A program made the translations under genes and the position numbers. Positions 2,687 through 28,100 of a stretch of 64,000 bases of DNA are shown here, one piece after another; the first letter of the stretch is position 1, and each line of letters begins with the position of its first letter. The notes beneath the pieces were generated by a model that was not told the origin of the DNA, made no database searches, and saw only the letters and a program-made list of their open reading frames with translations. Source of the stretch: Amphiscolops sp. MND2022 (Eukaryota); assembly GCA_964187785.1 (NCBI GenBank), contig OZ076409.1, positions 63,800,001 through 63,864,000 on the forward strand, given 5' to 3'.

Positions 2687-3257
2687 AATATTTTAGTTTT
2701 CTGTGATCTTTCCTGAAAAAAGGCTGTTAAAAAGTTCCATTGAATTCTGATGAAACGATTTCATTAGTTCAATCAGTTGAACAAGACAGTTCTGACCGTT
2801 TGAAATTTCGATGAAATGTCAAAAAATTTCTCTCTCCAAATGTTACTCTTTCAGCTCACGTTTTTCAAAAGCTTCGAGTAATGGAATAATAAAATTACTT
2901 CTTCATCACAAAAAGCAGAAAAGGCTTTTCAAATCAGTCAAGCTAACTAATATTCATCAGTCGAAGAAACAATCGCTAATTCAGCCAACTACGGACCTAT
3001 CACAAGTCCCGGACATGCACGATTGATTTGGATCTACGACGACCAGTTCTTTCAGCTATATCAAATAGTTTGCCCCCGACCTGAGGCTCAATTGATTTCT
3101 AGCTCTCTAACTCGGTTGCGTTGTGTCTATTCGTTTATTTTCTAATTCCGCCTCAGTTGTGAATATTCATCGCACGTGTTTCTGGTGATCTCATGTTAGC
3201 ATTCTATCACAATTGACATTAACATTACTGGATGACAGCACTTTAGGTTTATTTGTT

Positions 3258-4445: not shown

Positions 4446-5959
4446 GTTCGTCCGGTCCCGCGTGCTTTACACAATTATTACCCAACGCGTCATGGGCCGA
4501 TTTATGCATCTTTCATGTATATTACTTAGTGTTGGTAGGGGAACATTTTAGGCAAGTTTCATGATCCTCGGGTCACCTGGAAACGATATACATAATATTC
4601 GGGGTTTGTTATCTCAAACCCGGATTACATAACATAGGGTCAGTGCTCCTCCTACACGCGTCGTAGGGTTTCCGAAACATAAGCGAACGGCTTAATATTC
4701 TATGGGTTATCAATTCCATATCTTATCTGACTTATTCCGTGCTTGGTCGACGAGTTCATAGGGTCGTCCTACGTCACTTCCGGTGCTAATAGCCTAGGAT
4801 GGGGGACCCTGGCTTGATTTCGTTTTAATAAACAAGTAACATAACAGCTCAGGTATACGTGTGCCAAATGTCAGGTCTCTACAAATATTAGTCTTTGAGA
4901 AGTTCGAGTGAATCCAAATGGGGGGTGGGGGGTTTCGCCAGTGTTGCAAGTGTCATTCGGGAGAAAGTGTCTGATTGTCAAGCAAAAGATCAAATCAAAC
5001 GAATTTGTTTCTATAGTTCCGGAACACATTCGGATTCGAATTACGTTTCTTCATATTACCAAAAGGTACAATGGATTCTTGCCTCGAAGCAGATCTAAGA
5101 CTGTATTGTGCATCACGAGTTGTTAACAACCGTTTGAGATTATCATGAAGACGCTCGACTCTGACACAGCTAAAAAATGTGGGAAAATACTAAGTATATA
5201 TTTCAAATACTGTGAGAAGTTCATTCTCAACCATATAATCAGCTACAGATGCAAATTGGGACAGAAAAGAAAGTAAGCCAATAACTTTGTTTGAACCTTC
5301 AAACTTTCGTTTAGATGCGAATAAGTAGTATGCTTTACAAATGAAATTTAAATATTATCAATAACGCTTCGGGTCAGGGTCTATTTCTAGATTGAAGTGG
5401 CGGTCCAACAGGGGCACCCCTATAGGGTTAACGCCGTTTTACATATATGTAAAACAACGCCACGGCGTTAACTTTTTTACGTTGTTCGTAACAAAGACAC
5501 CATGACTTAAATCTAATACGAAATCATACTTATAAATCCAATCATTTCTTACTACTTTTAGCAACAAGTATGTCGTCTAACTGAATTTGCAACAATGTTT
5601 TTTTTCTAAACAATTACCCAAACAGCAAATAAATGAAAAATGTGGTTCACAAAACGAATCATCATTATTTGCAATTTTTGTCTTTTATCTGTTTACGGGA
5701 GTTCCCGAACTATTAACAACCTGCTGTGTGTTTTATGATCAGCAACACAGTGGTGAGACCAACAGGTCTCCTAAACTAACCCTTGGGTAATGGTATAATT
5801 ACCAATGTAATCATAATCGAAAATTCAACAAGCGGATTTTCTCTGAAGGTAATTTCACGATGAAATGTCGTTTCTGCTACTCATGAGTTCTTTCGAAATG
5901 TTGTCAGGCTTCCACTTTTTTGAAAGCATGACAGTTTCGAGGAATCTCTTTTATCTTCC

Positions 5960-7735
5960 TGTCATGCCAGCATGATGGAAATATAATCTACTAAATATCT
6001 GTAATGTAAATATTATGTCTTATGTATTTAGATATGGGCAATATGATGTCATATAATAAGATCCATGGTTGTGAGCAACCCTACGTTACTTGTACTTAAC
6101 CCCCTATTTTCCCCAGTGAGATTTGAGCTATTTATTTAATTAATACTGAGCATTCTAGTTCCGTTTGTCCGCAATTAGTGATTGTGCTAATAAGCAAATG
6201 AAGCTATTCTACATTTAATGGCTTGTCACGAGGAAAGAAAGTAGTTTCTCGGTCGAACTGGACCGCCATGACAAATAGACGAGAATGAACACTCGCTAGG
6301 GAATTCCCGCCTCAGAGGAAACTAGCGTGGCAAGCCTCCTCTCTTTGAAATACACGAAACGATGAAATAACGATGTTATTGGTGCTAGAACTCATAATTT
6401 GACTCAATCTAACAAATTTCATCCATATTACATCGCCTAACTGTGACCAGAACGCTAGAAAACGAGAGAATTGAAACACGATGTAAAAGCGATGAAACTA
6501 CTTGATTGAATACTTGTTACCATATGTTTCATCATTTGTACATTGCTCACGCCTCCAAAACCTGAAAACGGTGCTAAAATAGCTAACGATGGATAAACGA
6601 TGGAAATCTTTCATCGTTTTCTCATCTAGAGCTGAATCACGCTTCCAAGACCTGAAAACAGTGCTAAAATCAGGAACGATGGACAAACGATGGAAATCTT
6701 TCATCGTTTTCTCATCTGTAATCAAAATTCACCAATAACGATGGTAAAGCGATGTAACCAGTCCTGAACGATGCACAGTGCTCTCCCCACCACTCATTTC
6801 ATCGTTTTCACATCTAGTTGATCGTTTTAACACTAGAACAAAGCTCATTCATCATTCCTGCATCCACAGCCACATAAACAGAATCAACTAGTAGAAACGA
6901 TGCCAAAACGACAAAACTACTGAATCCCGTATGTCCAGTTAAATTAGCGCTATTGATTCATCGTTTTTACATCATACTTGTTTAAAGTTGATTTAACCGA
7001 CCCCCAGCTGGATTGTACCCCATTTTGATGTGATTTCGACACTTGCCGTGACTCAGACGATGCTTACTACAAGTTGCTAATTTGAATGCATTAAATATTC
7101 ATAGTAATTGGTTTAAAAAGATTCAGCGCGCAATTTCAGCTTGGTAGCCCTCCAGCGACATGCGATACAACCGGTCTAGTGACCAAGTGCTAATTAGCAC
7201 CTTGCTAACTAACCAATAAGAACGAAACGATGGTAAGAATTGAGTCTTACCATCGAACTGGTGGAAGGCTACCGGAGATACAACACAAGAATTACTAACG
7301 CTACATTGTACAAGTACTTATATTTACTTACCCTTTATACGTACCCTACTCGAGTTTACAACAATTTCAACTCTTATCCACGACAATCATCTCTTTCTCA
7401 TCGTATGAGTTCTAATTCCCAAATAACCTTGAGAAACGGGAAAACATTAACTGGCACTACTTCAGCAGAATCAACAGAACTTACTCACTCGGAGCAAATC
7501 GTTAACATGGAAAATGACAACGAAAATGTAGACGATCAAGCCCAATCAAGACAAAGTTCATCAGGTCCAGAGATAGATTCACAGAAGGCAAATGATGAAA
7601 GGTTTAGCCACCTACAATCAGAAATGTCTATGTTGAAAGCCATGATGGAAAAGTTGCTAGAACAAAACGAGGAGAGAAATAGACAAACGGATACCAATGC
7701 CGCAACGTCCTCGTTCGCGGTACGGTCGTCCAACA
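5960..7735 (+). mobile_element. Solo LTR (1776 bp) with 5-bp TSD CTTCC
   Basis: CTTCC|TGTCATG at 5955-5966 and TCCAACA|CTTCC at 7729-7740; TG..CA termini. Contains a gag-like N-terminal ORF at its 3' end. Confidence 0.7.
7405..7735 (+). pseudogene. gag-like N-terminal coding fragment inside the solo LTR
   Basis: MSSNSQITLRNGKTL...DERFSHLQSEMSMLKAMMEKLLEQNEE: LRxGK motif plus coiled coil. Similar to the minus-strand remnant at 62100-62790. Confidence 0.5.
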
Positions 7736-7828
7736 CTTCCAGAATCTCTTCAGGGTCTTTTTCAAATCTCTTCTGAATGGAGAGACATGTTGTGAGGGAT
7801 TGAATTGGCAATGGTGGCGCACCACTCA

Positions 7829-8301
7829 CAGGGACTCCGTAAAAATAATGGAATTTTATGGACGTAAAGCCATCAATAATTTCCCTAATCCTTCGCAAAA
7901 AATAAATTATTTCCCTAACTTTCTGAAAAAAATAAATAATGGAAATAATGGTAAATTTTTTAAAACAATTTGAAAAACAAAATTCAAATTACATTATGCA
8001 GGAAATCCATTCGGCAACCCAGAATTTTTTGTTATTGATGAGAGCAGTTCATCTTCCTGGTGCATTGGTGTGATAATGTGTCTTGAGTGTGTTTTTTGCT
8101 CGACAAATGAGAAATTTTGATCACGCGTTTTGTTTGCTTTCCACTTCTGTTGGCGCCAAAATTTTCTTAAATTGTTTCAGGTATGTGAAATAAATTATTT
8201 CCCTAAACTCTATCTGAAAATAAATAATTTTTATTTTCGTGATGAAAAATAAATAATTTATGGCCATTATTTCCATAAAAATTATTTTTTTGGAGTCCTT
8301 G
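7829..8301. mobile_element. hAT-type MITE
   Basis: TIR CAGGGACTCC..GGAGTCCTTG; perfect 8-bp TSD ACCACTCA (7821-7828, 8302-8309). Confidence 0.85.
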
Positions 8302-10877
8302 ACCACTCATAACTTAACCGATTATCGAAAGGCTGTATGTCATGTTAAATTTTTCTTTGATCATGCATCCAATATATTGGTTCCTTAAAGCTCTGTTCCA
8401 ATGAACAAATGGATGCACGAAGGTGCCTTGAATGTTGGGCAGGAGAATTTGAGATTGCGAAGATGCTTCCAAGACAGCGTTACCACTATTTTATCCTACT
8501 TTTGTTTCGAGCTCTGAGGGTTTAACGAAAATGTGTTCTTTCTGTTCATTTTTTGAGATCCGAGATTACTCTCAAAAAACTTGAGAATTTTTTAAATATG
8601 CTTCTTTCTGAGGCGATTAAGCAAGCTTATCTTTGAAATTTGCATTGATTCGTTTTCTCTTGAATGAGAGTTGTGATCAGTGGCCACCAAAAATGACTTT
8701 ACATTAAAGTAGATTTGAGAAAGAGAAAAAACCGGAGTTTTCGACGTGAACACTCTTGTATGTTGTTCGGGTTGTTTACTCACTCAGTTGGTTCGCAAAT
8801 CCTTGACGAAGGTAGTTAAAATAATTAAAAGTAATCTCAATATCGGTTGAAACCGACCAATAACCGGGATTCTTGGCTACTGTAGTGGCGTAGCCGATTT
8901 CTAAGCCTCATCTTACATAAAAGGCTTTCGAATATTTTCCACAAGGAGCTGCTGAGGAAAAGCTATGGGAAGACTATGCTCACTTACCTTGCAAAGTAGC
9001 CGTAGATACCCAACTGCTCCAACTTGAGTGGCCATGATAGACAAAAGTATAAAATGATATTAATTGTTTTGCTGAAGATGAATAAACCAGATTAGGTTCC
9101 AAACCTCTACGTCTGGCTGTTCTCTTATTGTATAGATGCAGCATTCACAGCTGTCTTCACTGATCGTTGGAAACCATGGAGCAGGATTAACATCCAAGGA
9201 ATAACGCTGAATTGTTGTCACGAATAACATCCTACACCAAGTTAAACTGTGAAAATGGCTTGAGCACGCGTGCAATTTACCCTGGAAATTCGAGAAAATT
9301 TAGCTTGAGAAATCTGAAAAACAATACAGCTTCAAATCAATTACGTAAAAGTTATTGTGATATGGTTTGCAGTTTTTAAGTAGAAATTGCTTTTCCGCTT
9401 CAGAAATTTACAATAAGTTTATCAAGTGTCTGTGAGAAGATCATCACAATCTTTAATTTTTTGTATGTCATGTTGATTTGTTCGAATGAAGCACAAACCT
9501 CCCCGAAAGGGGTTACTGCTGTAACAAAAGTGGCAAATATCAAGTCAAACGATATTGAACAACATATATATTTTGCGTATACATTGACCTCCGATGTATC
9601 AAGTTATGAGGGAGTTGTGAGGGATCAGTTATAAGGGAGTTCTATTTTCAGCTTATACAAAAGAACGCCATTACTACTAGTAATCTTGCGTAAAAACATG
9701 GGCGTCATGCAACAGACTAATATGGAAATATTTAGTTCATATAATGACTATATTTGAGGGTCTTGCCAATGTATGAAGTCAGTGTGATAGGTATATAGTT
9801 GGCTGGAGTTGTGCAATGATATTTTCCTGTTTTCTTGATGAACCCTCACTTCACCGTTTTTTCCAAAGCTAAGTTCCTTAGGTAAACATTTTATTGTATA
9901 GTTCCACTATTGCTTTGCGCATCCAAAAGCCGCTAGTCTTCAACGTGGATGGGTGAATATTGTCTGGGTCTGCTGATTTGACTGTCGTTTGAATTTGTGC
10001 AATAGCATCATCGACCTCGTTCATAGTTATTGCGTGATCCAGAGTTCCTTCGTGGTTCGCTTGATCTTTTATGCACGCTTCAATCTGCCGCTCATCATCT
10101 TTGAAGTTGTTGCCGAAGCTTTGATCCTTCATGTGATTAGCCCTCAGTTGATAGTAATCACACGCCAACGTTGCTCCCATTGCCAAATACAAAACGTTCA
10201 TAACTCCATCCGAAAGTTTCGCTCCAGTATGCCATACTATGTGCGCTATGATCTTGTTTAGGTACGTTTTCCAACACGCATTCGCAGGGGATAAGTTTCG
10301 TCTTCGCCCTTATTTTTTCGGCCTCTGCTGTTTCTCTCAGGTCTTCGTAAGAAGCTTCAAACTTCTGATCCACTTTTTTGACCTTTTTTGAGCCATCCAA
10401 TCCAGGTTTTTTCAGTCTTGACGCTCCTGTATATCTTTCATTTTATTGGCAACCATCTCGAACACAAACCAAACCGGATAGAGACCTCGATTTGGAGCTC
10501 CTGTAATCAGTTCTGTATCTGAATCAACAAACTAGTTCTTCAGTTTACGATAACTCTGATTGGAAATGCTTCGATCAATGATGCTCCAGCCCTCATCGAC
10601 ACAAACAAACGTTGGTTGTTCCTTATTTAGGACTTCAATTTGGCTCTGTGCACAGAATTCATTAACACTTGACCATGTTCGTTTTGAGAAAGATCATTCC
10701 AGATCTCGGGCCTCGTAATCATATCCCCCAGTATCACCACCTGTTGGATATTTTCGTTATTAGCATCTATTAGAGCTTGTTTTATTGTATCGCAGCCTTC
10801 TCGGGGTCCTGTGGGGTTATTTTGTGGTATGTAGTATGTTCCTTTTAACGTAGCCTTTTCCTCAATTTTAGCTGCTA

Positions 10878-12436
10878 CCCTAGTTGAAAGTGCTCGAAAG
10901 TTTTACATGCTTTTATAGGTTGCAAGGCTAATTTATTAGGTTTTTGGGAGCTGCTTAGAGAAGTTTTCATGCTCAATATTTTCATGCTGCGTCACTAATT
11001 TTTCAGGTATTTATCAAGATTTCTCTACAATTTGGCGGGTTTTCAGAGCAGCATCAAGAAAATCAAAACCAAATAACCCGCGAAATTTTGTAGGTTTTTG
11101 TGGGCAAAGCGTCTAATTTTGTAAGCACAGACGCTACAAAGAGACGTAAACAAATTGCCAGTGTGGCAAACAAATTCGTATTACTGGTATTTTTTTTGGG
11201 TGGGAATTTTTTTGCTTGCTTACTGTTGAAAAACGCAATATTTCTAACTTCTCAGGTTTGGAAGAAAGAAATCCATTTTTTAATGAAGTTTTATACGGTA
11301 TTTTTAGGGAACTACTTTGAGAGCGGAATATCGAAATCAGCTGTTTTCATTGGTTGAAATTTTCAAATTTTTTCAAACTTTTTTCGACCAGGAAATCTAA
11401 GAAAAAGTTTAAAATACTGAGAAAATCATTATTACAGTCTTTTTTGAGCATTTTCATTCAAATTGTTTGCAAATCATCAAATTGTTGTCACCTTTGATGA
11501 TGAAAATCATCGAAATTTTATTTTTGAAAATTTCGAATTGGAAAGAAAAAGTCAAAATTTTGAAGTTCCTGAGTTCATTTCCCATCGCCATTTTGAATTA
11601 CAGTCAACTCCGGGGAAACGGAAATCGGACTAAAGAAATTGAACTAATGGAATTAGGACTAACATGCTCAAAATTTCAGAAACGTTCATGTGAAATAGAA
11701 CTAATTTCGTATTTTCTCAAACAGGAATTAGAACTAATTTGTTACGGGAATTGGAACTAAAAACAGGAATTAGAACTACTTTGTTACGGGAATTGGGACT
11801 AAAAAAAGTGGGAATAAGACCTAAAATGCTTTCGAAATCGTTTGAGAACTTTGCTTTTGTCCTGTTTTGTAAAAAAAGAATTGTTTAAGAACCTGTTCTG
11901 TTTCAGAATCTCTCTCGTGGTGGTTTTCTGGCTTCGTCATCCATCGGTCTTTTCGGAGTGCTTCAAAAGTGGCCGCAGTTCTAGTTGATGTTTCAGACGG
12001 TTTTTCAGATCTCAAGCTACGAACGGATGAATTCACAAAAACTTTATTGGAAACTCGTGGTTTGTTTTGCGTTTGTTTGTCTGAATTAATTTATTTGGTT
12101 TCCTATTAATAGATTTTTTCCGTTGAAATGATTTTTGATAAAGTACAGTAGGTTTTCGAGATGAAGACAAAGCGTTTGAAAAAGTTTTCTACGACTTTTG
12201 GAGGTCTAGGGTCGCTCGGTGCCCTCGTTTTGCTGCTTCCTTTTTTTATGAGAAATTCTGTAAAATGCTTGGAAGTTTTTTCAAAGTGCATAGATATGCC
12301 TAAAGCATTTTAGAAAATGCTTGGAACTTTTACAAAATTTTTCCATGCAGGGTCCCTGAATTTTCCATGTTTTATAAAAAATTAGCCTGCATGCATGAAT
12401 GCAGCATGGAAAACTTGTCGGCAGATTCGACTAGGG
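10878..12436. mobile_element. Non-autonomous TIR element with TA flanks, nested in LINE ORF2
   Basis: TA|CCCTAGTTGAAAGTGC ... GCAGATTCGACTAGGG|TA, an imperfect TIR. Internal ggaattagaact tandem subrepeats at about 11630-11810. Confidence 0.65.
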
Positions 12437-13374
12437 TATCCAGACCCCGTCCATGTCTTCTCGATGATATTTCAAAAGTTGTCGGATTAAAGCATTACCT
12501 GATCGAAATCATGCATCCCCCTTTGCATTAATTGGGGTAGAACGACCTGTATCCTCTCAACTTACAATCCACGTGTTGTACAGACTTTATCTCGATAACA
12601 CAGCAACGTCAATTTCTATGTCCATGACATATTTTCCAAGTAATTCTTTACTGAGGGCAAAGAAAAAATTTATGTTTACAGTAAACATTCTGTCAGCCTA
12701 TTCAGTTTGATCACTTTATCTAGTATTGAAAGGAAATACTTCCCTGATCGTTTGTCGATTGAATCTTTCTATCATTTCGGCTGACTTCTTCAGAACCCGG
12801 CAATCCTTGTTTGGTGCATCGTGATTTTGGCCGCAGTTACAGCATTTCCAGTTACCTTCGAGTTCAGCACAGTCAGTGTTTTTATGTCATTCGCTCGAGC
12901 ATCTGCTACATCGACTTTGTTTGTTTGGACATAGAGTGGCTATAAGACCAAATTTAAAACATTTCTAACATTGAATGATTCTGGGTTTCGGCGGGTTCGG
13001 TTTTTCTGCTCCTAGCCACAGCGCTCCAATGAAAATGCCTCCGACCTCGATAGCTTTGAATTGCTCTTCTTCAATAACAACTGTTTGTAGAATTCTCATG
13101 GGGTTTGTGTCTTTGCTGGTAAATTTTTTGGCCGGGATACAAATTCGCAACATAGTTTTTTAATTGATCTTCTGGTATGCCAGAATGATGCATCTGATGT
13201 GTTAGCGGGGTATTTTTCAAGATAATTGTGTTGGTTTGTGGTTTCTTTGTATGACGGCATTGAGATCCACCAAACAGATCTGACTGCCACTTTGTCACAA
13301 TCTCTTTTGCTTTTGTTTTGTCCTCAACGTCTACGACTCTTTGCAAAGTAGAGGAAGCGAAAGTAGAGGGGGGT

Positions 13375-13810
13375 AGCGAAAGTAGAGGAAACGAACACCA
13401 AGGGGTTTTCACAGGCACCAAAGCCACTCAATCAGTTAAAAGACAGACGAAATAGAACCCTGAAGCATCAGTAGTCTATCATGGCATTAGAAACCCAGAG
13501 AAAATTAGCGACTCAGTTCAAATCAAAGCACAGATATCCAAATGTTTTAAACAAACGAAAATTAAATCTATCATGCACAGACCCAGTGGACATGTCCACT
13601 GGGTCTGTGCATGATAGATTTAATTTTCGTTTGTTTAAAACATTTGGATATCTGTGCTTTGATTTGAACTGAGTCGCTAATTTTCTCTGGGTTTCTAATG
13701 CCATGATAGACTACTGATGCTTCAGGGTTCTATTTCGTCTGTCTTTTAACTGATTGAGTGGCTTTGGTGCCTGTGAAAACCCCTTGGTGTTCGTTTCCTC
13801 TACTTTCGCT
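13375..13810. repeat. Perfect spacer-less palindrome, 436 bp
   Basis: Centre GGACA|TGTCC at 13592/13593. Identical 63-aa ORFs are called on both strands. Confidence 0.95.
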
Positions 13811-14362
13811 GCTACTTCTTGGATAATTGTCTGTATGTGGTCGATTCTTGGTCCGATTGTTAAAGTTATTCCTTGAAGATGTGTAACTAATTTGTTTAGG
13901 TCCACTTGTTCGAAGGCTTTCATGTTTTCAATCCGTTTTGCTGATGTCTCATGTAGCTGTTTTCTGTAGTTACTTGGTTCTTCGTGCCTTCTAAGATTCT
14001 GGAAACGATTCGCATCACATGTGCGTCACATGCCTTTCAGAACCAGCGGAGTGCTTCAACTTTTTTGATTGCATCATGGGTTTATAATTATTCCCAAACA
14101 TTTGATATGAAACCAGTCCACGCATGCTTGACAAGCTAGTCCCAGTTCGTTTTCGGCGGCTAATAGCTGGCATTGTTGGCAATTGTCGGATTCTCCTATC
14201 TCTGAATACGAAGAATCTGGAAGCTTGGTGATTATAACAAACAACTTGTTGTAATCGCTTCCCCACAAGGGTGTTACATTTGAAACAATAGAAATAAAGC
14301 GTGAACTTTGTGGCGATAATTGTTCGGTAACGTTATGAATAGGATTGAGCAGTCAAATACAC

Positions 14363-14833
14363 GGAGTCGTTCCATTATTCCGAAGCACCATTATTCCGAA
14401 AATAAATTTACGTTCCATTATTCCGAAAATAAATATTGAGTTCCAAAATTCCGAAAAGGTTTACACGCAGTAAATACTGCGCGTCATAGTCACGCGATAA
14501 AATTTCATTCAATGAACCAATCACATTCCAATAAAATGAATACAGCACAAGCGGTGAACTAATTACGATAATGTAATCAGCTATGCTCACATACCCCTAG
14601 TGCCCTAAATGCAGGAGCGAAGCAAAGCGGAGCGACGTGCCATATGGCCATGCCTCAATGTTGCTACTTGGCGAAGGGAGCGAAGCGACCGAGCCATACA
14701 ACAAATATGCTAACCTCTTCAAATAACTTTTCGGAATGATGGAACGGTAAATTTATTTTCGGAATAATGGAACGGTAAATTTATTTTCGGAATAATGGAA
14801 CTGTAAATTATTTTCGGAATAATGAATAGCAAT
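14363..14833. mobile_element. Mutator/Foldback-like MITE with subrepeat TIRs
   Basis: 9-bp TSD CAAATACAC (14354-14362, 14834-14842). Left arm has ccattattccgaa repeats, right arm has ttcggaataatgg repeats. Confidence 0.75.
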
Positions 14834-14927
14834 CAAATACACCAATGCAGTTTATTAGAGCATTCAACGTTCGAAAAACGCACGTTTCAGTTTTCGAACG
14901 TTTGAATCATTTAGGTCTCTTAATAGG

Positions 14928-15033
14928 ATTCCCAGTAGAAAACAAAATCGGAAACAGAACGGATCCATTAAGTTAGTAGCGCTACTAACTTAATGGATCC
15001 GTTCTGTTTCCGATTTTGTTTTCTACTGGGAAT
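14928..15033. repeat. Perfect spacer-less palindrome, 106 bp
   Basis: Centre GTAGC|GCTAC at 14980/14981. Confidence 0.95.
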
Positions 15034-15178
15034 TTTAGACAATATTCCTTTAGACGTTATTCCCGTCACACTTTTAGACGCTACTCTTTCGACGTTATTC
15101 GCGCGCGCGAATAACGTCGAAAGAGTAGCGTCTAAAAGTGTGACGGGAATAACGTCTAAAGGAATATTGTCTAAAATT
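15031..15178. repeat. Perfect spacer-less palindrome, 148 bp
   Basis: Centre TTCGCGC|GCGCGAA at 15104/15105. Abuts the previous palindrome with a 3-nt overlap. Confidence 0.95.
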
Positions 15179-15727
15179 TCGGTTTTACCATAGGGAATGA
15201 GAATGACTCGGGTTTAGACGTTATTCCAGTTTTGCATTTAGACGTTATTCGTTATAATATACACGTTCTTCCCGCTCCCCTTTGAGGTGAGTCCATTGTA
15301 ATAGGGAACTGATTACTTTCTGCTATAACCAAAGAATTGTTGATTTCAAATTTTAGCATTCGTGACATTCGTGAAAGCCCAGACGCTTGAAAAGTAAACG
15401 TTCTTTTTGTGAGTTTTCATCCCACTATGATCTAAGACACGCCTGCAGATACTTGAAAATTTATATATGAAAAATTCGAATGAGTTGAAACTGTTTGGCA
15501 CCGACGAGTCATCAGTTTAACATGGATGGTCATGATTTCTGAATTTTGATCAATTTGTCACCAATTGCTGGTTTTTTACAGCACTTTTTTTATTAAGTTT
15601 TGGTTAGTTTTGTATCCTGGTGCTAAGCGACTTTTTCACAGGTTTTTTAGAGAGTTTCTAAACTTTTAATAATTTATTTATTGAATACCCGGATACGAAG
15701 TTGTCACTTAATCACCTGTGAAACAAA

Positions 15728-16456
15728 ATGGGTCCTCAGGATGAACAGTACACTCCTAATCAACCCGTGACTGAAATCAACAAACATTCTCACTCACTCT
15801 CCGGAATGGCGGTTAATACAACAACTGTCAATAACTTGAATGAGCCATCCGTCGAAACTTTGCATCAAGTTGAGGAGTTGGCCCCACCGAAAGCTTTGTT
15901 GGAACCCGAATTTACTATTAACGGAGATAATGGAATTCCTCATCAGCAACAACAACCTGCTCACCAGCAACCGCAAATGATGCAAAAGCCGATTTTCGAT
16001 ATGCCTGAACAACAGAATATTCCGCAATTTCAACAGCTATTTCCTGCTGATTTCAATTTACCTGGCCTGTCAGCTGGCTTGAATAATGCCCCCACGATTG
16101 GAGGCCAACCACCCTACTGGTCAAATTCAGCTCCTCAACATTCAGCCCCCACTGAAGACTTCTTTGGCTATGGTCCGCCATCGGTGAATGGAAACTTTTC
16201 GTTCCCTCCCAATATTGCTCCACCTGCACAAGCATTGAATACAGTTTTGAATCAGAATTTCATGAATTTTCCTCATTTGGCACTGAATGCCCACAACCGC
16301 CGATCACCTGTATATAATCCAACTTTTCCTGGCCCTCGACACACTCCAAATTTGTATCCCTTGAAGAACTTTGGACAGCCCAATGGATGGACAAATAATT
16401 CACAGACTCCCTGGAATGCAATTACATCTTCACCTTGGAACCAATTACCGAAACGA
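15728..16456 (+). CDS. CPEB coding exon 1 (low-complexity Q/N/P-rich N-terminus)
   Basis: 243 codons from ATG 15728 to donor CGA|GTGAGT at 16457, phase 0. The start codon is inferred. Confidence 0.85.
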
Positions 16457-19400
16457 GTGAGTTAATTTTCAAGGGTACGTGCCATTTTTTCTATGTGAAA
16501 TTCTAATGATTTTGTTTTCCCAGGATGCAAGAAACGCTCCTTTTGATTCCATGAGATTCCCGCAATTGGAGAGCAGTCTGTTGGACATCATGAGATCTGA
16601 GCTACCAGATCAAATGCGTCAACGTAAGTTTTCATGCGTGGAATAGTCATTAGGATGTCGAAGTTGGTGAAAAAATATATACGTGTTTTTGCAGCTCGAC
16701 CTATGTCTAAAAGAAGAGGTTATGTTCTTGGCTGTATATGGGCCACTAACACTAAATAATGATTGTGCAATTGATCCGTAATGTTTTCTTGACGATATTT
16801 GGGACATACCCTAAATTGACTAATACTTATTGTTTCTTTCAACTCCGTAGAAATACAATTTCTTTGAGCTAGTTGCTTCTATTGAAATGGTTTAACTTTC
16901 AACTGGATTTGGTATCATAGGACGTAATCCTTTCTTCGCGCAAGTTGAAGACTTCGATGATCATGGACAAGGAACTGGGGGTGGTCATTTCAATCCCAAT
17001 GATCCGATGATGGCAACTAATTTGAGCAACTTGAATGCAGTTGCCCGGGCTAACCAATACCCGGAACGATTCTCAAGAAAGGTTTTCGTTGGTGGGCTTC
17101 CTCCAGACATTGACGAAGGTTAATAAATGAATAGAATCAGCTGATTTGGTCTTCTGACATTAACACTAACACCCAAAATGAATACTTTGCATTGCTGAAA
17201 ATTGCTTATTACAGAGGAGATTACTCAAACATTCAGACGATTTGGACCTTTGGTTGTGGACTGGCCTCACAAGGCGGAGAGCAAGAGTTATTTCCCCCCA
17301 AAGGGTATGCTTGTTACAAAAAAAGTTGCACAATCATCAGATTCATGACATTAAATTCTTTTTGTTAAAAAAACAGGATACGCCTTTTTGCTGTTCCAAG
17401 AAGAAGCCAGTGTCCAGGCATTGATTGACCAGTCGATGAAAGATGATGGAAAATTGTACATCTGCGTGTCATCTCCGACAATCAAAGACAAAGCTGTTAG
17501 ACTTTTACAAAGTGTCTTCATTTGTAAATGGAGAGCAACAAAGTTTGCATCATAATTTTTTCCAGGTTCAAATTCGACCTTGGAATCTTGCTGATAGTGA
17601 TTATGTCATGGACGGAGGCCAACCTTTGGACCCTAGAAAAACTATCTTCGTTGGCGGTGTACCCCGTCCACTCAAAGCTCGTAAGCACTTAGTTATTACT
17701 TAGTTTAACTCGTTTCAAATTCATAACTTGATTTTCCTTTGCAGAGGAATTGGCTCGCATCATGGACAGATTGTATGGGGGTGTTTGCTACGCTGGCATT
17801 GATACTGACCCTGAGTTGAAGTACCCCAAAGGTGCTGGACGAGTGGCCTTTTCGAACCAGCAAAGCTACATTGCCGCAATTAGCGCTCGTTTCGTCCAAC
17901 TGCAGCACGGAGACATTGACAAACGGGTTTGTATCTCCAGTTCTCAAACACTTTCTGAGAAGTTTTTTTAGCAATGCTGCTTACGATCATCATATTAAGT
18001 CATATTTGATTTCAATTGAAGCTTTTTGCCCATGGCGTTGTTTCACGATTTTGTTCTCTGGTTCGAGAGTAAAAATGAACATACAATGTATAAATGTTAG
18101 TTAAATGTGTAACAAAACATTTTTCTTAACTTAAATACTGCAAAAAGAAGGACCTGCTTTTGGCTATTTTCCTGAACCCACGAAAAGTTATCTGATTGTG
18201 GACGAAGGTTATATCTCTCAAGCAAAAACCCTATTTGAGGCTCTAGGAGTGAATGTAGTTTCGGCCCACCGTTACCTCGGCTCCTTCATAGGATCAAAAG
18301 AACAAAAATCTGACTACCTGAGAGCTAAAGCTGATGAATGGTCACAGAGTATTCAGAAAATAGCAGAAGCAGCTGAAAGTTACCCACATGAATCTTTGAG
18401 CGCGTTCACAAGATGTCTGTAGAATGAATGGGGATTCTTTTCTAGAGTTCTTCCTGACTGTCAAGATTGGCTATGGAAAGTGGAAGAGTCGATAACACAA
18501 AACTTCATACCAAAACTTCTTAATTGTGATATATCAGTAGATGAACGTAATTTATTTTCGCTCCCAGTCCGCAACGCTGGTCTTGGCATAAACAACCCAA
18601 TAATAGAAGCCCCATATTCCTTGGGAACATCGAAACTAGCAACATCCCACATTCAGAATGCGATTCGGGGAAATTGCACGTTTAATAAACTGAAACATGG
18701 CTTCACCGTCAGAGAGGCCAGAAAACTGCATAGTGAGACAGTTAAAGTCAGAAACACCAGCATCTTAAATCAAATACTCGAAACAAGCAGCGAAAGAAAA
18801 GTGAAGGCTCTGAAAAGGTCAGCCGAGAATAAAAACTGCCTGGTTAACCGCTAAAATTTCGTCAAAAGACCACTTTTCACTCTCAGCGCAAGAATTTCGT
18901 GACGCAGTCTGCTTGCGTTATTCGAAGCCAATAAGTATGCTTCCAGGAATTTGCGACGGTTGCAGAGGCGAATTCTCAATTCAGCATGCGCTGGCATGCA
19001 AAAAAGAGGGTCTTATCACATTACGCCATAATGAAATTCGGGATGCTGTTGGTGATCTAGCTTCACTTTACTGGAAGCACATCAGAAGGGAACCGATGAT
19101 ACGCGAAGGTGTTCCAAATAACCAAACAACTGCTCTGTATGCAGATCTTCTGATAAGAGGAGTGTGGAACCCACAAGAGTCAGCGGCGTTTGATGTACGT
19201 GTCACCGACACTGACGCTGAATCTTATTCGGAAAGAAGCACAGAATCTATACTGAGAAGTGCAGAACGAGAAGAAACAGAATTACAAAGATGCCTGTCAA
19301 CAACGTCTTATATCCTTTACCCCACTTGTCATATCAGTAGATGGTGTACTCGGTGCGGAATCAGTTTCTGAAACGTCTGGGCGAAGGACTCAGCTTAAAA

Positions 19401-22400
19401 TGGGAGCGAAAATACTCTCAAGTTATGTCTTGGATACGAGCCAGGATCTCATTCGCGACACTCAGGGCGACAAGCGTTTGTCTCCGTGCTACAAGAACAA
19501 AATGGAGATGGCTGGGAATTGATGATGGTGCATCCTTTGCACGAAAGAATTGATCTTTATTTTAGACAAGTTGTCTTACATAACAGATGCAAAATCATTG
19601 ATTGTGGATCCATTCCCGTCTTATGCGAATTTCTAGATTGTCACTGACTTTGACCCTAGTGCCATTTCATTCTTTGACATGTAAACTCTATGTTTCGTTA
19701 TTGTAGTGCACCTTTGTTTTTGTACTCAAGTCTTGAGCTTTGTCAATTAATAATTGATGATTTAAAAAAAATTCTTGACTTAACTGCCCATAAAAACAGG
19801 CACTTCCAACTCGATTGTGAATTGGGACTACTATCTAAATCCAAGCATTATGTTATAAATTCTGAGCATGCATTTCGTAGCGAAATCACGCGAAGCAATG
19901 CCTTAGAGTTCTTGCTTTTGTAGAAGTATTTCAGCTATGCAATGTAATAGCTACATGCAATGGTTATGCAATTTTTCGCTACACTTGTAAAGGTGCTCCT
20001 TGGCGCATCATTTTGTTCGACTATCAATCCACTTCAATCAAATGGTATTTGTTTGGACTGCAGTCAAAAGTCATGTCAAGGCTATCCCTTGAGATCTGGA
20101 AAAGAACAAGATGTTGTTCCGACGCTATCAGCTACATTAGAACAAGCCTTGAATGGCTTTAGTCGGCGCTCCGTTTGAGGCTCAAAAAGAACAAAAGTAC
20201 TTCAAATTGTAAAAGGTTCTCTTTTGAATAAATTCTCAATTTTACAGTGCCGAAAAATCCCAAAGAGGGGAACCAACCCTTGGGGCTTAAAAGAGCCTTT
20301 TTGTTTATTCTATGCTTCTTTTCCCGCCAAAAACCATAAAACCCAAGCGAGAACCCTTTTGTGAAATGAAAATTTTCCAAAAATTTACAGTTGTCGAAAA
20401 TACCCAAAGGGTGACAGTTTGAGCTTGAAAACGCCTTTTCCTATCCACAAATATCAAAAAACCAAAGGGGAACACTTTCGAAAAATTGATTTTTTTGGAA
20501 GGAAAGTATCGCACAGTTCCGAAAATAACCTATTAGGTTTATAAAAGAACTATTTAATCCGAATAAGTATGTGAAAATAGGAACTGGGACACCCTTCCAA
20601 CTAATTTGCCGATTTGTAAACTTTCGGATTTTGGCATTCGGCATTCGACCGGATTGGAAAAAAGACGACAATCGAAAAGTCACTAATAAAGTCGCATTAT
20701 ATTGCATGAAACGCCGACTAAAAACCAGCTTCGCTTCAATCCGAAGCTCTGTTGCGCCTCAGATGGTGCCGAAACACACATCGTTAGTATGGACAGCTAC
20801 CGTGATCGTGATTTACGACCAGGGTTGACTGTTTTAAAACAGGCCAATAAGAAACGTTTTAAAACATCAATAAAAACGTTATAAAACATTTTTGTTTTTA
20901 TATTTTTGTCCATTCGTTTAGGTGCCAATTATTGGGAACCATCTTGCAATGGAAATTAAATGTGATATGAAATTCATGCAGATAAAATACTCTGAAATAT
21001 ACTGAAATTCAGATAATACTCAAAAACGATTTCCTTTTTTTAGCGTGAAAAAGCTGGAAAACTGGCTTTTTTGTATCGCCAATACAACAAAAAATCTAAA
21101 ACATTTGTGTTGTGATTTGTTCAATTGAATTGAGCTCTTGAAACAAATTCGTTTTTTGCTCGACGGATAAATACAAAAAAAACATAAAAAACATGTTTTA
21201 TACTATAAAAAACTGTTTGATAAATATGATAAAAAAACTTTTTTCCCCACCCTGGTTACGACAAACCAATACTCATGTTTATCTTGAGCAGTCCTTTATG
21301 ATCATCTTTACCCGCAAGTTGGTGTTTCATTGTATAAAGTAATCCTCTATTTGCTGAAGTTTATTCCAATTTATTTTTATGAAACCGTTAATTACAGTGC
21401 AAGAAGGCTCTACATCTTGCAGTGTGATGAAACCACACCAAACCTCATTTTTATTATTTCTACGATAGCAGGAATATTATTGAAACCTCAAGATTTCCAC
21501 TTTTTTCAATAAAGTTTCTGTCGTGATACTGAAAAATTCAGATATCTTGCTCGGCAGTGAGTATAAGCGTGAGATTTAAATTTCTCAAGCTGCCGACTAT
21601 TCGTTTCTCGTGCGATGGAACGAGCGAGTGGTATTTATGCTTTCGTACGCCGAGTTATTGAGATGAAGCAAACGAGTGTTAATTATTCGTACGCCGAGTT
21701 CATGAAATGAAGCGAATGAGTGTTAATAATTCGTTCACCGAGAGCTCCGTTTGAGGCTCAAAAAGAACAAAAGTACTTCAAATTGTAAAAGGTTCTCTTT
21801 TGAATAAATTCTCAATTTTACAGTGCCGAAAAATCCCAAAGAGGGGAACCAACCCTTGGGGCTTAAAAGAGCCTTTTTGTTTATTCTATGCTTCTTTTCC
21901 CGCCAAAAACCATAAAACCCAAGCGAGAACCCTTTTGTGAAATGAAAATTTTCCAAAAATTTACAGTTGTCGAAAATACCCAAAGGGTGACAGTTTGAGC
22001 TTGAAAACGCCTTTTCCTATCCACAAATATCAAAAAACCAAAGGGGAACACTTTCGAAAAATTGATTTTTTTGGAAAGTATCGCACAGTTCCGAAAATAA
22101 CCTATTAGGTTTATAAAAGAACTATTTAATCCGAATAAGTATGTGAAAATAGGAACTGGGACACCCTTCCAACTAATTTGCCGATTTGTAAACTTTCGGA
22201 TTTTGGCATTCGGCATTCGACCGGATTGGAAAAAAGACAACAATCGAAAAGTCACTAATAAAGTCGCATTATATTGCATGAAACGCCGACTAAAAACCAG
22301 CTTCGCTTCAATCCGAAGCTCTGTTGCGCCTCAGATGGTGCCGAAACACACATCGTTAGTATGGACAGCTACCGTGATCGTGATTTACGACCAGGGTTGA

Positions 22401-24420
22401 CTGTTTTAAAACAGGCCAATAAGAAACGTTTTAAAACATCAATAAAAACGTTATAAAACATTTTTGTTTTTATATTTTTGTCCATTCGTTTAGGTGCCAA
22501 TTATTGGGAACCATCTTGCAATGGAAATTAAATGTGATATGAAATTCATGCAGATAAAATACTCTGAAATATACTGAAATTCAGATAATACTCAAAAACG
22601 ATTTCCTTTTTTTAGCGTGAAAAAGCTGGAAAACTGGCTTTTTTTGTATCGCCAATACAACAAAAAATCTAAAACATTTGTGTTGTGATTTGTTCAATTG
22701 AATTGAGCTCTTGAAACAAATTCGTTTTTTGCTCGACGGATAAATACAAAAAAAACATAAAAAACATGTTTTATACTATAAAAAACTGTTTGATAAATAT
22801 GATAAAAAAACTTTTTTCCCCACCCTGGTTACGACAAACCAATACTCATGTTTATCTTGAGCAGTCCTTTATGATCATCTTTACCCGCAAGTTGGTGTTT
22901 CATTGTATAAAGTAATCCTCTATTTGCTGAAGTTTATTCCAATTTATTAATATTTCTGCTTTAGCAGGAATGTTATTGTAACCTCAAAGTTGGTCCTTTT
23001 TTTTTCAGTCGTCAAATTTCGTCCTACTGAATAATTCAGATATTTTGTTCGGCAGTGAGTGTAAGCGTGGGAAAGCTGCCGACAACAATTCAATTCTAGT
23101 GCGATAGAACGAGCGAGTGGTAATTATCCATTCGTATGCTGACGTCATTGAGATGAAGCGAATGAGTGTTAATTATTCGTTCGTTGAGAGCTTCGCCTGC
23201 ATTCAAATGCGAATGCGAAACTTCGTCTACGCTTAGTTATATTTTCTTTAGTCCGAGAAGAATTAAAGGCGGTGTAAACTTGTACAGTGATTAATTGTGC
23301 TCTAAGTAATGATTAAACAGGAGTGTATTGGTATTCCAGATATGATTCTTTTATTAATGATTTTTTGTTTTAAAAAAAATAAAGATTAAAGCAGAAATAG
23401 TACTGAGCCCCGGAGGGGCCTATTTTTTTTATGAAACCGTTAATTACAGTGCAAGAAGGCTCTACATCTTGCAGTGTGATGAAACCACACCAAACCTCAT
23501 TTTTATTATTTCTACGATAGCAGGAATATTATTGAAACCTCAAGATTTCCACTTTTTTCAATAAAGTTTCTGTCGTGATACTGAAAAATTCAGATATCTT
23601 GTTCGGCAGTGAGTATAAGCGTGAGATTTAAATTTCTCAAGCTGCCGACTATTCGTTTCTCGTGCGATGGAACGAGCGAGTGGTATTTATGCTTTCGTAC
23701 GCCGAGTTATTGAGATGAAGCAAACGAGTGTTAATTATTCGTACGCCGAGTTCATGAAATGAAGCGAATGAGTGTTAATTATTCGTTCACCGAGAGCTTC
23801 GCCTGCATTCAAATGCGGAAGTGAAAATTCGTCTACGCTTAGTAGTTATATTTGCTTTAGTCCGAAGTTTAATGCCGATATAAACTGGTACAGTGATTAA
23901 TTTTGCGCTAAATAGTGATTAAACAGGAGTGTATTGGTATTCCAGATATGATTCTATCATTGAAAATGAAATTAAAGCAGAAATAATACTGAACCCCGGA
24001 GGGGGCTATTTTTAGAAGCTGACACCCTCATTAAATAATGCGCTATCACTGAATGATTACAAATTTAGTTTCGCTGCGCGAGATCCTTTATCTGATGAGA
24101 GATTCAACTGAGAGAAAAAAGCAGAAATGAAATAATCCTATCAGAAATGTCTAATCAATTGCTTTTTTTTGCAGGTTGAAGTAAAGCCATACGTATTGGA
24201 TGACCAGATGTGTGATGAGTGCCATGGAAACAGATGCAATGGAAAGTACGCGCCCTATTTCTGCGCCAACGTAATGTGTCTCCAGTACTACTGTGACCAG
24301 TGCTGGAATCTGATCCACTCACGCCAAGGGAGAGAGTACCACAAACCTTTGGTGAAAGAGGGCGGCGACAGGAATAGAGGATACCCTTCTAACACGCAGC
24401 CTCCCACCAGATGGGGTTAG
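15728..24420 (+). CDS. CPEB2 (orb2): Cytoplasmic polyadenylation element-binding protein, CPEB2/3/4 (Orb2) subfamily; 9 coding exons, about 600 aa
   Basis: Exons 15728-16456, 16524-16623, 16695-16718 (microexon), 16921-17118, 17215-17304, 17377-17495, 17566-17680, 17745-17926, 24175-24420. All introns are GT..AG with compatible phases; total 1803 nt. Motifs [98 protein letters not shown] and ZZ finger CDEC..C..CANVMCLQYYCDQCWNLIHS are diagnostic of CPEB2-4/Orb2. Confidence 0.96.
16524..16623 (+). CDS. CPEB coding exon 2
   Basis: Acceptor ttttcccag, donor C|GTAAGT. Encodes [33 protein letters not shown], with the conserved LESSLxDIMR motif. Confidence 0.9.
16695..16718 (+). CDS. CPEB 24-nt microexon (candidate alternative exon), encodes (P)RPMSKRR(G)
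   Basis: Acceptor gtttttgcag, donor AG|GTTATG, 24 nt, phase 1-1 and frame-preserving. Arg-rich, and lies between the DIMR exon and the RRM1-proximal exon. Confidence 0.72.
16921..17118 (+). CDS. CPEB coding exon 4 (start of RRM1)
   Basis: Acceptor catag at 16920. Encodes RNPFFAQVED...[18 protein letters not shown]. Donor G|GTTAAT. Confidence 0.9.
17215..17304 (+). CDS. CPEB coding exon 5 (RRM1)
   Basis: [30 protein letters not shown]; ttacag acceptor, GTATGC donor. Confidence 0.95.
17377..17495 (+). CDS. CPEB coding exon 6 (RRM1)
   Basis: GYAFLLFQEEASVQALIDQSMKDDGKLYICVSSPTIKDKA; aacag acceptor, GTTAGA donor. Confidence 0.95.
17566..17680 (+). CDS. CPEB coding exon 7 (RRM1/RRM2 linker)
   Basis: [38 protein letters not shown]; ttccag acceptor, GTAAGC donor. 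Confidence 0.95.
17745..17926 (+). CDS. CPEB coding exon 8 (RRM2)
   Basis: [60 protein letters not shown]; ttgcag acceptor, GTTTGT donor. Confidence 0.95.
18135..19771 (+). mobile_element. 5'-truncated CRE-like non-LTR retrotransposon (RT C-terminus, zinc knuckle, restriction-like endonuclease) in the last CPEB intron
   Basis: GPAFGYFPEPTKSYLIV, RYLGSFIG, LPVRNAGLGI, CDGC....SIQHALACKKEG..TLRHNEIRD, ADLLIRGVW..FDVRVTD. A8 tail at 19764-19771. TSD TTCTTAACTTAA/TTCTTGACTTAA (18123-18134, 19772-19783). Stops and frameshifts present. Confidence 0.85.
20820..21254. mobile_element. hAT-type MITE (copy 1)
   Basis: CAGGGT..ACCCTG termini; 8-bp TSD TTTACGAC/GTTACGAC. Confidence 0.7.
22392..22827. 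mobile_element. hAT-type MITE (copy 2, made by segmental duplication)
   Basis: Same termini, TSD and flanks as 20820-21254. Confidence 0.7.
24175..24420 (+). CDS. CPEB last coding exon (ZZ zinc finger)
   Basis: Poly-T gcag acceptor. VEVKPYVLDDQMCDECHGNRCNGKYAPYFCANVMCLQYYCDQCWNLIHSRQGREYHKPLVKEG...; stop TAG. Confidence 0.96.
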   Translation, partial: VEVKPYVLDDQMCDECHGNRCNGKYAPYFCANVMCLQYYCDQCWNLIHSRQGREYHKPLVKEGGDRNRGYPSNTQPPTRWG

Positions 24421-25124
24421 GGCCACCGGACAGGTGCCAGGACAGACGTTGGGTTTCATCGGGATGACGCTATCTATGCATGGCATTTGGAAGAAACCAG
24501 TGTCTCTAAACGTGGTTTTTGGAAAATCATTCAATGATGCTTAATGTAACCCATGTCTGTTGTATTCGCAAATTGAGGCTTTGGAGACCCCAGATGACAA
24601 ACGCTCCTAATCGCCGCCGAATTCAAAATGCATGAATTAATACCGTAGAAAAGTATACAAATGATAATCTAGCGTTTAGAAACTCTATATTGTTGTATTG
24701 CGCACGTTAAATTTTAGTTGAGTTGAATGAATGTCAAATTGCATGTTAGGACAATAGCTAATCTCATATTTTTTCACACTTCGTTCTTACCGTTCTCTTT
24801 GTGCAGTAAAAGTGAGCTGTATATATTTTTGTTGAATGTATACAAACTTCTGCATTTATTCTTTTAATTGCATCATTATTATTACAACTGTCGTGTTTCT
24901 TCTCTTCAATCTTTCCCTCCCCTGTTGGCGGCTTCGGCAGCTGTTTGTGTACTCGTGGGTTTTGTGGAGTGTACATGTTTTTATTAACCTGTTTACTCCG
25001 CTGCTGTGCTCCTCATTTATATATGAGAACATTCGATCGTTTGCTCTTCTGAGTTTTTGGTGTGTATGCGTATACAGTACGACCTCCTACCTATACTTCT
25101 ATCACTGTTGAATATTTCATTAAC

Positions 25125-25149
25125 TTTTATCCTAATAAATATTATTAAA
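25125..25149 (+). promoter_or_regulatory. Putative CPEB poly(A) signal with adjacent CPE
   Basis: TTTTAT at 25125-25130, AATAAA at 25134-25139 and ATTAAA at 25144-25149, at the end of a T-rich stretch about 0.7 kb after the stop. Confidence 0.5.
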
Positions 25150-28100
25150 TTATTTATCAATGCATGCTGGGGCTACCATAGTAGTGATATAATCAAACGG
25201 CGAACTATTCAAACTCGTGGCGAACCATTCACTGAATACTAAGTTCACTCAGTACGTATACATCTTTCTCCTCTCTATACGTCTTTTCCATCTCATTGCG
25301 ACCGACGTTAACCTACCCTTTGACCTGACATGACGCAACCAATTGACCAGTTGACATTACTCACTCGACCTGACCTGAATTCGAACTTTTCCGAGACCCA
25401 AGTATCAAACTAAAACAAATGCAATGATAACGAATATCACCAGCAAAAACCTCATCACAATTGTTTTAAGACCATGTTTTTTAAAGTACATTGATGCTAC
25501 CCTGCAAAGCAATGTTTTCCAAGACTAACCAGTTGTTAGTTTCCTCGCATTTATTCAGTAGTGATTACACTAGTGTACCCAAGACTAGATAAAATATAAG
25601 AATATCTCGTTCCGCAACATTCTCACTTGCACCAAAAAGGATTGCATACTTTGAAAACTGGCTGTGCAATTATCGAATGAAAATTGAGGAAACGGGCGAA
25701 CTTTTATAATATCAGTTTTTGTGTTTCTGTATTTCTGTAATGGACTCCGTGCAATTTTCATTACTTAGATTTCTATTTTGACAGAAAGCAACCAATCAAT
25801 TTGTTACACTGAGATCTGTTCATCAAATCGCGTCACTAGCACGTTAGGATTCTCGAAAAATTCTATTCATATCATGAGACTTACATGATTGAAATTTGAC
25901 CGATGAATGATTTTTATGTGCGAGTGATGCAAATTAAATTATTTGACCTGTGTGCCAGCTGAGCCTGCAAGCGCCAAGATGCCATGAAGTTTTCATACCA
26001 GAAGTTGTTCATAAGGCTATATTTTGGTTTTGTCTCAAATTTTCTACGGAAACAATTTGCTGTTTTATAAAACCATTCATCTTACATCACACGCTTGAGA
26101 AGTTTGTGCAGTTCCATTTCTACGCAATTTGTGCTATTTTCACAAATAAATTTGGAAAACAAGAAAAATTTGTCAACAGAGTTGTTTATTTTCATACTTT
26201 GTTGTTGGTAAAATGTTTTGGTCGTCCTGTCCTGTTGCAGCTCAGCTTTTTTGATCATTTTCGACTCGACACAAAGAGGGACGAAGACTGAAGGCGCGAC
26301 AACTCCTGGCCATTTTGACTACTACCTTTTTCATGGATAATGCAGATAACTCAACAAACAAACAAATCTCCTGCTCCAAACACCCAAATCGGTGCTCTTT
26401 TGTAAAAGAGTTTTCACTTCACACTTGAATAGTAGTTGTTGCATTCTTACTCAGGTAAAGTGTATATGACTCGTAAAAGCTATCCACCCCTCGCAGAAAC
26501 AACCTATTTTTTGATCCAATTTTGCCCAAAACATGATGGGAATCCTGCAAATGATGACGGTTTTTATGAGTCACCATAGAAGAAATAGAACTTTGAACTT
26601 CGCCGTTTTCATAATATTAGCTTATATATTTGTATATGAAGATTCTTTATGAGAAATCGAACCCTATTTATTCAATTTCAATGTCTAAATGCAGAGAATG
26701 TGACGAAACAACTGAATAGTATGTGCTGTCGTCGCCATTCTAACCTTCGTTAGTTGACTGTTTTGTCTCAAATTGGTCTGTGGATTCTTTCAAATGTTTG
26801 AAACACCTGAATTATTTCAAAGATTTATACAAACATTCATGATCAGGGTGAGCCGCCTTGTTCATGATGGGAATCTTTGCTTAAACAATTGAATGCCACG
26901 CATTTCAAACATTTATCACTCGTTTCTGTCGTGAGAATTGATCTTGATTCTTGTTTAGTTTATTCATTTATTCATAAAATGCGAAAATATCAATTTTGGT
27001 TAGTGTTTGTTCAGTGAAAAATTGTAGAGGGAATTCCAAGTAACGACCACTTCACCCGTGTATTAATGCTATATCACTAATAGTAGACGTGTTCTAACTT
27101 CATTTTTTTATTCATCGAAAATAGTTCAGTCTTGAGAGCCCAAGTCATAGTGCTTCAAATAGCTGATGCCGTTGAGGTCAGGACAATCAAATTGAACCTT
27201 GAGTACTCACATTATGTAGCTGGTCCGAAATCAAACCAATTTGATCTAGTTTAATGTTAGCATATACTTAGCAGAGTTTCATTTGTAAATGTTGATCAAT
27301 TACACAAACATCTCCGACCGAGTCTACTTCAAAAGGCAACAATTCTAACTAGTTTGGAGACAATGAGTACTACAGGTGGAAAGTAAATATTCACAGCAAA
27401 AGCATGCATTATTCAGTACAATTTGCGATCCTGACTTGTTTTGAAGCCTCTATAATGAGATGTTGGGTCCTTTTCATCTTGTCTTCGAAGTTATTTCAAA
27501 AAATAGCTGAAGTAAAAGCAACAGTTGGTCCAGCTGTAAAGGATGCAAAAATTAACTCAATGAATTTTTTGGAATAATTTGCCAAAAAGCTTAGCCCACA
27601 TTTCCATACAAGAAAAAAATTTTTCAGAATTTTCCGCGCAGGAAAGCTGTGTTTTCCCTGACAATAGCCAGTTTCCATTTTTATGCTCGAATTATTGAGA
27701 TTCTTTCACAAATGTCAACTGCCAGTAGAGTTGGTTCGTAGCGTAAGTCTGACCAGATATTTTTTTGGAAAACATGGCAAACCAAAATGACCTCTAGAAA
27801 TGACATCCAAATGCCCCGCCTATCCAAAAAGTGACACTTGGCATCTTTTATGGACTTTTGAAAAATTTCAATGATTTTAAAGAAAGTTCACATAGTTCCA
27901 CGATGTAACATTAAATTGTTCAACATGCTATTTAGCGAAGAAACCTGATGTTTCTTGTTCAAAAATGCTAAGACGCACCCTTAACGTTTTTAATTTTGTT
28001 AGGCAGTTTTTGTATAATTTCTGCTTGTTTCGTAATTGTAAGCATCTACCGGATTCAAAAACAAGAAATTCACTCAAGTAGAAAACGTTTCAAGAGAGAA

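Follow-up and report, generated by a model that had tools for sequence, protein, structure and literature searches.

A 24-nt segment in the CPEB gene of Amphiscolops sp. MND2022 is likely, judged by its sequence, the orthologue of the B-region exon of vertebrate CPEB2-4, which in CPEB4 is the microexon me4. The segment occupies positions 16695..16718 on the + strand of the window, by which we denote the whole 64,000-nt stretch analysed. We assign a probability of about three in four to the reading that this exon-shaped stretch is an inherited me4 orthologue whose inclusion in neurons is likely brought about by an Srrm234 protein bearing eMIC. A known microexon family is now placed in acoels, the most remote of the bilaterian lineages sampled, where it is latent in RefSeq models and was not found described. 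According to earlier descriptions, neural microexon programmes differ almost entirely in their wiring from phylum to phylum, and the CPEB exon would, if the reading is true, be a further ancestral case, one carrying a biophysical mechanism known from mammals as well as a disease link, since mis-splicing of the CPEB brain microexon is linked to autism in humans.

The host gene and anatomy of the segment

By sequence, the host gene, of a family tied to memory and to the control of RNA, is an acoel CPEB2-4/Orb2 with two RRMs and a CEBP_ZZ domain behind a disordered N-terminus. On the + strand, coding exon 1 (15728..16456) encodes the Q/N/P-rich disordered N-terminus and exon 2 (16524..16623) carries the conserved LESSLLDIMR motif and ends in phase 1. 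The exon 3' of the microexon (16921..17118) reads (G)RNPFF...ERFSRKVFVGGLPPDIDE and contains the start of RRM1, the RRM exons follow at 17215-17304, 17377-17495, 17566-17680 and 17745-17926, and the final coding exon (24175..24420), preceded by a 6.2-kb intron, encodes the CEBP_ZZ domain and the stop. P0001, the protein that a close relative's RNA contig encodes, equals the predicted skip form at 582 of 592 residues and has Pfam matches to RRM_7, RRM_1 and CEBP_ZZ. The top protein matches are CPEB2/3/4 and Orb2, the nearest named proteins being those of the acoels Symsagittifera roscoffensis and Convolutriloba macropyga. A 22-row tree, built without a CPEB1 outgroup, placed the window protein, the relative and both named acoels in one group with 100/100 support. 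The RRM2 exon was matched once in the 1.07-Gb genome (three candidates scored).

The last base of exon 2, 16623, is the first of a codon, and position 16921 opens the next exon. In the 297-nt interval between them, 16695-16718 is the sole open AG-24nt-GT segment, with TTTTTGCAG directly 5' and GTTATG directly 3'. It delimits an upstream intron of 71 nt (16624..16694; GTAAGT donor, TTTTTGCAG acceptor, AG-free zone of 29 nt) and a downstream intron of 202 nt (16719..16920; GTTATG donor), the latter exceeding all other short introns of the gene (seven in total, the rest 64-96 nt). At 297 nt, the locus is compact enough for a whole-locus minigene. In a nine-exon model the inclusion form reads QMRQ-P-RPMSKRR-G-RNPFF and has 600 aa, the skip form reads QMRQ-R-RNPFF and has 592 aa, and both are open through to the common stop at 24420. 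The original prediction of a 24-nt, AG/GT-bounded, phase 1-1 segment encoding (P)RPMSKRR(G), with frame-neutral skipping, is thus borne out by sequence and exon model.

We asked how readily such a segment arises by chance, using 20000 dinucleotide shuffles of the 297-nt interval as the null. An open AG-24nt-GT segment was present in 5553 shuffles (28%), and one ending in G in 1300, hence the anatomy alone is weak evidence. The peptide was scored against 12 non-acoel cassette peptides, of which one (Dreissena) had been extracted one residue out of register. RPMSKRR ranked first among the 237 AG-24nt-GT candidates of both window strands, with 13.4 against 9.9 for the runner-up, and its similarity was reached by 2/20000 shuffles. 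At the level of sequence, the peptide, unlike the bare anatomy, constitutes strong evidence for microexon identity.

Splice forms in acoels

The RNA data were assembled contigs from two runs of one seawater sample, representing a relative that is about 92% identical (word share 0.05). The relative's contigs, one of which begins at 15569, upstream of coding exon 1, span the CPEB gene and bear out the other intron joints. The skip junction 16623-16921, whose presence had been proposed as a check, was found in them, with one skip contig per run in alignments at 85% and 80%. Inclusion of the microexon was not seen in the contigs of this one sample; since assembled contigs lose rare variants, the lack of an inclusion contig is not evidence of absence.

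The relative's contigs thus hold the skip form only, and both splice forms are annotated in the two other acoels. The S. roscoffensis isoforms X1/X2 (XP_063724715/6) differ by 8 aa, H-RQSYRRR-G versus R, and those of C. macropyga (XP_075262757/8) by 8 aa, Q-RPMNRRK-G versus R. These RefSeq models, which are database models and not read-level data, match the window in site, in the 8-aa difference and in the R-to-x...G junction change. Conservation in related species, which the original prediction had named as a check, is found at annotation level. Its expectation that gene predictors would easily miss the exon fails for these two species, whose RefSeq models include it. We found no paper that describes the S. 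roscoffensis/C. macropyga isoform difference as a microexon, and a search of the acoel and microexon literature gave no title about a CPEB exon.

The segment might instead be a relic or a product of chance that this species does not splice any more, a reading that would fit the skip-only RNA, the non-consensus donor and the frequency of open AG-24-GT segments among the shuffles. We nevertheless consider it highly improbable: the splice sites and the frame are intact, GTT donors are in use elsewhere in the CPEB gene, and RPMSKRR and the inclusion peptide of C. macropyga agree at 4/7 internal residues, with K/R swaps at two more. The internal R-P-M-S of the window exon is absent from the C. macropyga exon.

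The cassette in other animals

We compared 26 isoform pairs, hand-picked for visible length differences. An 8-aa difference at this site was found in 20/26 pairs from 17 species, a fraction that is not a prevalence because of how the pairs were picked; the remaining six differ elsewhere. Besides the acoels, the cassette pairs included lophotrochozoans (Lingula, with ARPYGRRR, Lineus, two Octopus, the chiton Liolophura and Dreissena), chelicerates (Tachypleus, Argiope, Larinioides and Centruroides), hemichordates (Ptychodera and Glandiceps) and vertebrates (Gouania CPEB2, Mobula CPEB3 and Carassius CPEB4). In Tubulanus, all of the forms displayed contain the motif. The junction changes H/R, Q/R, S/R and T/S have only the first base in common, which by the genetic code leaves phase 1 as the one fit. 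At the DNA level, an AG|24 nt|GT exon in phase 1-1, encoding R[NS][FY]GRRR, ending in G and lying 5' of the exon that opens RRM1, was found in two of 80 metagenome loci (L098 and L096), 17 of the 80 being left out of the scan for lack of the RRM1 anchor motif; as the flank was just 3 kb, the misses carry little weight. L098 is vertebrate CPEB4-like, judged by its next exon. The exon phase proposed for comparison with CPEB2-4 orthologues therefore agrees, both in the isoform junctions and in the L098 DNA. Deep conservation, suggested originally from the likeness to the vertebrate exon, proved wider than proposed, extending over acoels, lophotrochozoans, chelicerates, hemichordates and vertebrates.

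The peptide motif was present in 11 of 18 chelicerate proteins. The regular expression, which also overlooks the divergent Dreissena cassette, found it in 0/40 insect, 0/3 barnacle, 0/19 gastropod and 0/5 bivalve proteins, an absence at annotation level. The insect forms inspected mostly have a different, longer segment (~22 aa) at the site. From these sequences the exon seems to be decaying within molluscs, while chiton and octopus retain it. Dreissena (P0362/P0296) keeps an 8-aa cassette at the site with a peptide that is not basic-rich. Optional additional exons occur just 5' of the microexon in chelicerates and nemerteans (P0351/P0352, P0334/P0246) and in none of the acoels; these extra exons and the ~22-aa insect segment echo the vertebrate C-region/exon 3. 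The motif was not found in four metagenome loci that look non-bilaterian (L035, L103, L074 and L055), where skip transcripts could not reveal the exon. In L035 (1500-1600) and L103, a CPEB2-like gene, possibly cnidarian, has, roughly where the microexon would lie, a short separate exon of ~15 aa that includes a KK pair.

Since the exon is found in protostomes and deuterostomes, it dates to their ancestor under either published placement of Xenacoelomorpha. It is very probable that the last bilaterian ancestor already had the exon and that insects, and probably other groups, have since lost or replaced it. Independent gain by acoels of a 24-nt basic microexon in the same ancestral phase-1 intron is the alternative regarding origin. 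Repeated gains of neural exons at equivalent positions have been reported to be common (bioRxiv 10.64898/2026.09.05.749416), the xenacoelomorphs sampled are three acoels of a single lineage, and among the basic versions the acoel peptides diverge most: they score just 12.8-13.6 against the non-acoel set and lack the [YF]GR core. Yet length, phase, the Arg of the first full codon, the terminal basic run and the closing Gly are the same as in protostomes and deuterostomes, and the shuffle result, at the 2/20000 level, also counts against convergence. Moreover, because the exon was already ancestral to protostomes and deuterostomes, convergence would require loss and regain, and we regard it as distinctly improbable.

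We found no paper on CPEB, microexons and bilaterians together, and earlier microexon literature and its supplements may mention the exon. Four positional microexon matches between fly and mouse are given in the accessible part of PMC8797185, none of them in CPEB. All 14 'orb2' entries of that source stand in Mmus rows of its GO table (13 rows displayed), which indicates mouse targets mapped to fly names, and a fly orb2 eMIC exon was accordingly rejected. Two neural exons, in APBB and MADD, have been inferred to be ancestral to bilaterians (bioRxiv 10.64898/2026.09.05.749416), and 'cpeb' has 0 occurrences in the main text of that preprint as accessible. The CPEB exon could not qualify there, as an insect exon was required and the peptide is found in no insect protein of our set. 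The APBB1/2/3 (6 nt) and MADD (9 nt) microexons resemble the CPEB exon in being short, in frame and common to bilaterian phyla; they differ from it in the criterion of an insect exon and in that the neural specificity of the CPEB exon outside vertebrates is inferred. The accessible portions of PMC10284499, PMC9465852, PMC8011179, PMC10735318 and PMC12871342 yielded no statement on invertebrate conservation of the exon. A conserved Cpeb element described in PMC10735318 was considered and ruled out as this exon, being located in the 3' UTR.

Putative regulator and cis code

In mammals, inclusion of me4 is limited to neurons and depends on SRRM4 (PMC11711090). The 24-nt exons of mouse Cpeb2 and Cpeb4 are listed as eMIC-dependent in the supplement of PMC8797185, and zebrafish cpeb2 and cpeb4 have 24-nt neural microexons (PMC12626424); the supplement rows for both animals confirm the vertebrate exon length from which the original prediction had argued. 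By analogy with mouse Cpeb2/Cpeb4, it is reasonably probable that the acoel exon is skipped in most cells and included in neurons, and an eMIC-bearing Srrm234 protein would be the likely driver of this inclusion.

A profile search of the genome gave a cwf21 match at C3:89374587 and two matches to PF15230 (SRRM_C), a profile that we take to cover the eMIC domain; the two share the strand of cwf21 and lie downstream of it at distances of 68 and 135 kb. The two matches scored 27.1 and 23.8 bits at a cut-off of 27 bits, and a rescan of the 27.1-bit match gave 25 bits. Both end at a donor, and ~290 nt further on a short exon continues in frame. Between cwf21 and the first PF15230 copy there is one RS-rich frame. 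From sequence, these loci are read as one gene, a putative Srrm234 whose tail would be eMIC-like. Two nearly identical copies of the eMIC-like pair of exons lie 67 kb apart (G000:C3:89442224-89442700 and 89509417-89509860; L002, L003, L013, L019); either the 3' end of Srrm234 has been duplicated in tandem, or the duplication arose in the assembly. Substitutions in the SP.FL.RRRIT motif set the second copy apart.

The eMIC cis code comprises UGC near the 3' splice site, a long AG-exclusion zone and a long pyrimidine tract (PMC8797185). At the acoel microexon, the only UGC within 25 nt of the 3' splice site is inside the TGCAG acceptor, a pentamer that ends 3/8 acceptors of the gene. The AG-free zone measures 29 nt versus 20-72 nt for the gene's other introns, and the U tract is short. 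The donor GTTATG, singled out originally as weak, turned out to be no special feature, as GTT opens 4/8 donors of the CPEB gene. Donor and UGC were both dropped as marks of regulation because they do not discriminate, and the local cis code is not diagnostic of eMIC.

This bears on the view that the orthologous cassette is real and that its regulation in acoels is other than neuronal and eMIC-dependent, for instance by germline, muscle or stage, or as unregulated partial inclusion. The lack of a distinctive UGC or long AG-free zone would agree with it, as would the report that fly and mammalian eMIC programmes have been rewired almost completely relative to each other (PMC8797185). However, the vertebrate orthologues are neural and eMIC-dependent, aside from the zebrafish cpeb4 exon, which is also fully included in the endocrine pancreas (PMC12626424). 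Furthermore, the eMIC-like locus in the genome speaks against regulation without eMIC, and skipping in a contig at the level of the whole animal is compatible with inclusion in a minority cell type. We judge regulation of another kind to be unlikely and retain neuronal, eMIC-driven inclusion as the preferred reading.

Predicted function of the insert

The acoel exon and the vertebrate CPEB4 me4/CPEB2-CPEB3 B-region exon share 24 nt, 8 aa, frame preservation and phase 1-1, the position between the LE.SL.DIMR exon and the RRM1-opening exon, and a first Arg, a final basic run and a closing Gly. They differ in that the acoel peptide is RPMSKRR and the vertebrate one R[ST][YF]GRRR, the YG core not being kept in the acoel; in the net basic gain, +3 versus +4 in vertebrates; and in the acoel flanking introns, of only 71 and 202 nt.

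Two vertebrate mechanisms have been described for the exon. In CPEB4, the arginines of me4 bind the His cluster, so that condensates stay reversible (PMC11711090), and in CPEB3 the serines that directly follow the exon become a target of PKA/CaMKII through its inclusion (PMC4767366). The His cluster of vertebrate CPEB4 is missing from the acoel N-terminus: the window form has a maximum of 3 His per 24 aa and the named acoels one of 2, compared with 9 and 7 in two CPEB4 proteins and 2-4 in the other invertebrates, CPEB2 and CPEB3 sampled. Likewise, the residues after the exon are G-R-N in all three acoels, an Asn standing where the vertebrate CPEB3 Ser is the PKA/CaMKII target (PMC4767366); Ser is found in vertebrates, Lingula, Octopus, chelicerates and hemichordates. 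As both features are absent, the vertebrate mechanisms are not directly transferable to acoels. The suggested link to CPEB4 condensate behaviour holds in part, in that the basic insert is kept, and fails for the His cluster and the downstream Ser.

We propose that inclusion would replace one Arg by P-RPMSKRR-G, so that the disordered region gains a net three basic residues at its end. The insert would adjoin the aromatic/acidic patch PFF..EDFDD, ~50 residues ahead of RRM1, and could alter how the protein self-associates or how stable its condensates are, by way of Arg-aromatic/acidic or RNA contacts, acting independently of the CPEB4 His cluster and the CPEB3 phospho-serines. That the basic insert is kept when His cluster and Ser are absent favours such a basic-patch mechanism, and we give an even chance to inclusion-dependent basic-patch retuning of this translational regulator without His cluster or phospho-serines. 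Acoels may hence serve as a natural experiment on the first role of the exon. In its broadest form, the proposal is that the autism-linked CPEB4 microexon may be a founding target of the programme of neural microexons in bilaterians, present across the range spanned by acoels and humans as an alternatively spliced, eMIC-driven exon and hidden from catalogues by its loss in insects, and that its original job may have been a basic-patch switch predating the His-cluster and phospho-switches; here the balance of probabilities is level.

Other features of the window

A search of 14000-27000 against Rfam gave no match, and no MARCHF5-like frame was evident 5' of CPEB among frames of >=90 aa in window 1-15500, where short exons would escape. 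The 6.2-kb last CPEB intron (17927-24174) contains broken frames at 18135-19371 that look by eye like retroelement remnants, two of which had no Pfam match, and a near-exact repeat of ~0.6 kb (frames 20159-20828 and 21735-22400). On the - strand, a frame at 33171-33497 resembles the final exon of a single-pass membrane protein with Tyr-based tail motifs; Pfam gave no match to it. Further downstream, 40400-50800 is a degenerate LTR-retrotransposon-like region with RVT_1 at 43466-43810 and a direct duplication of 2.9 kb, seen as identical frames at 45507 and 48438.
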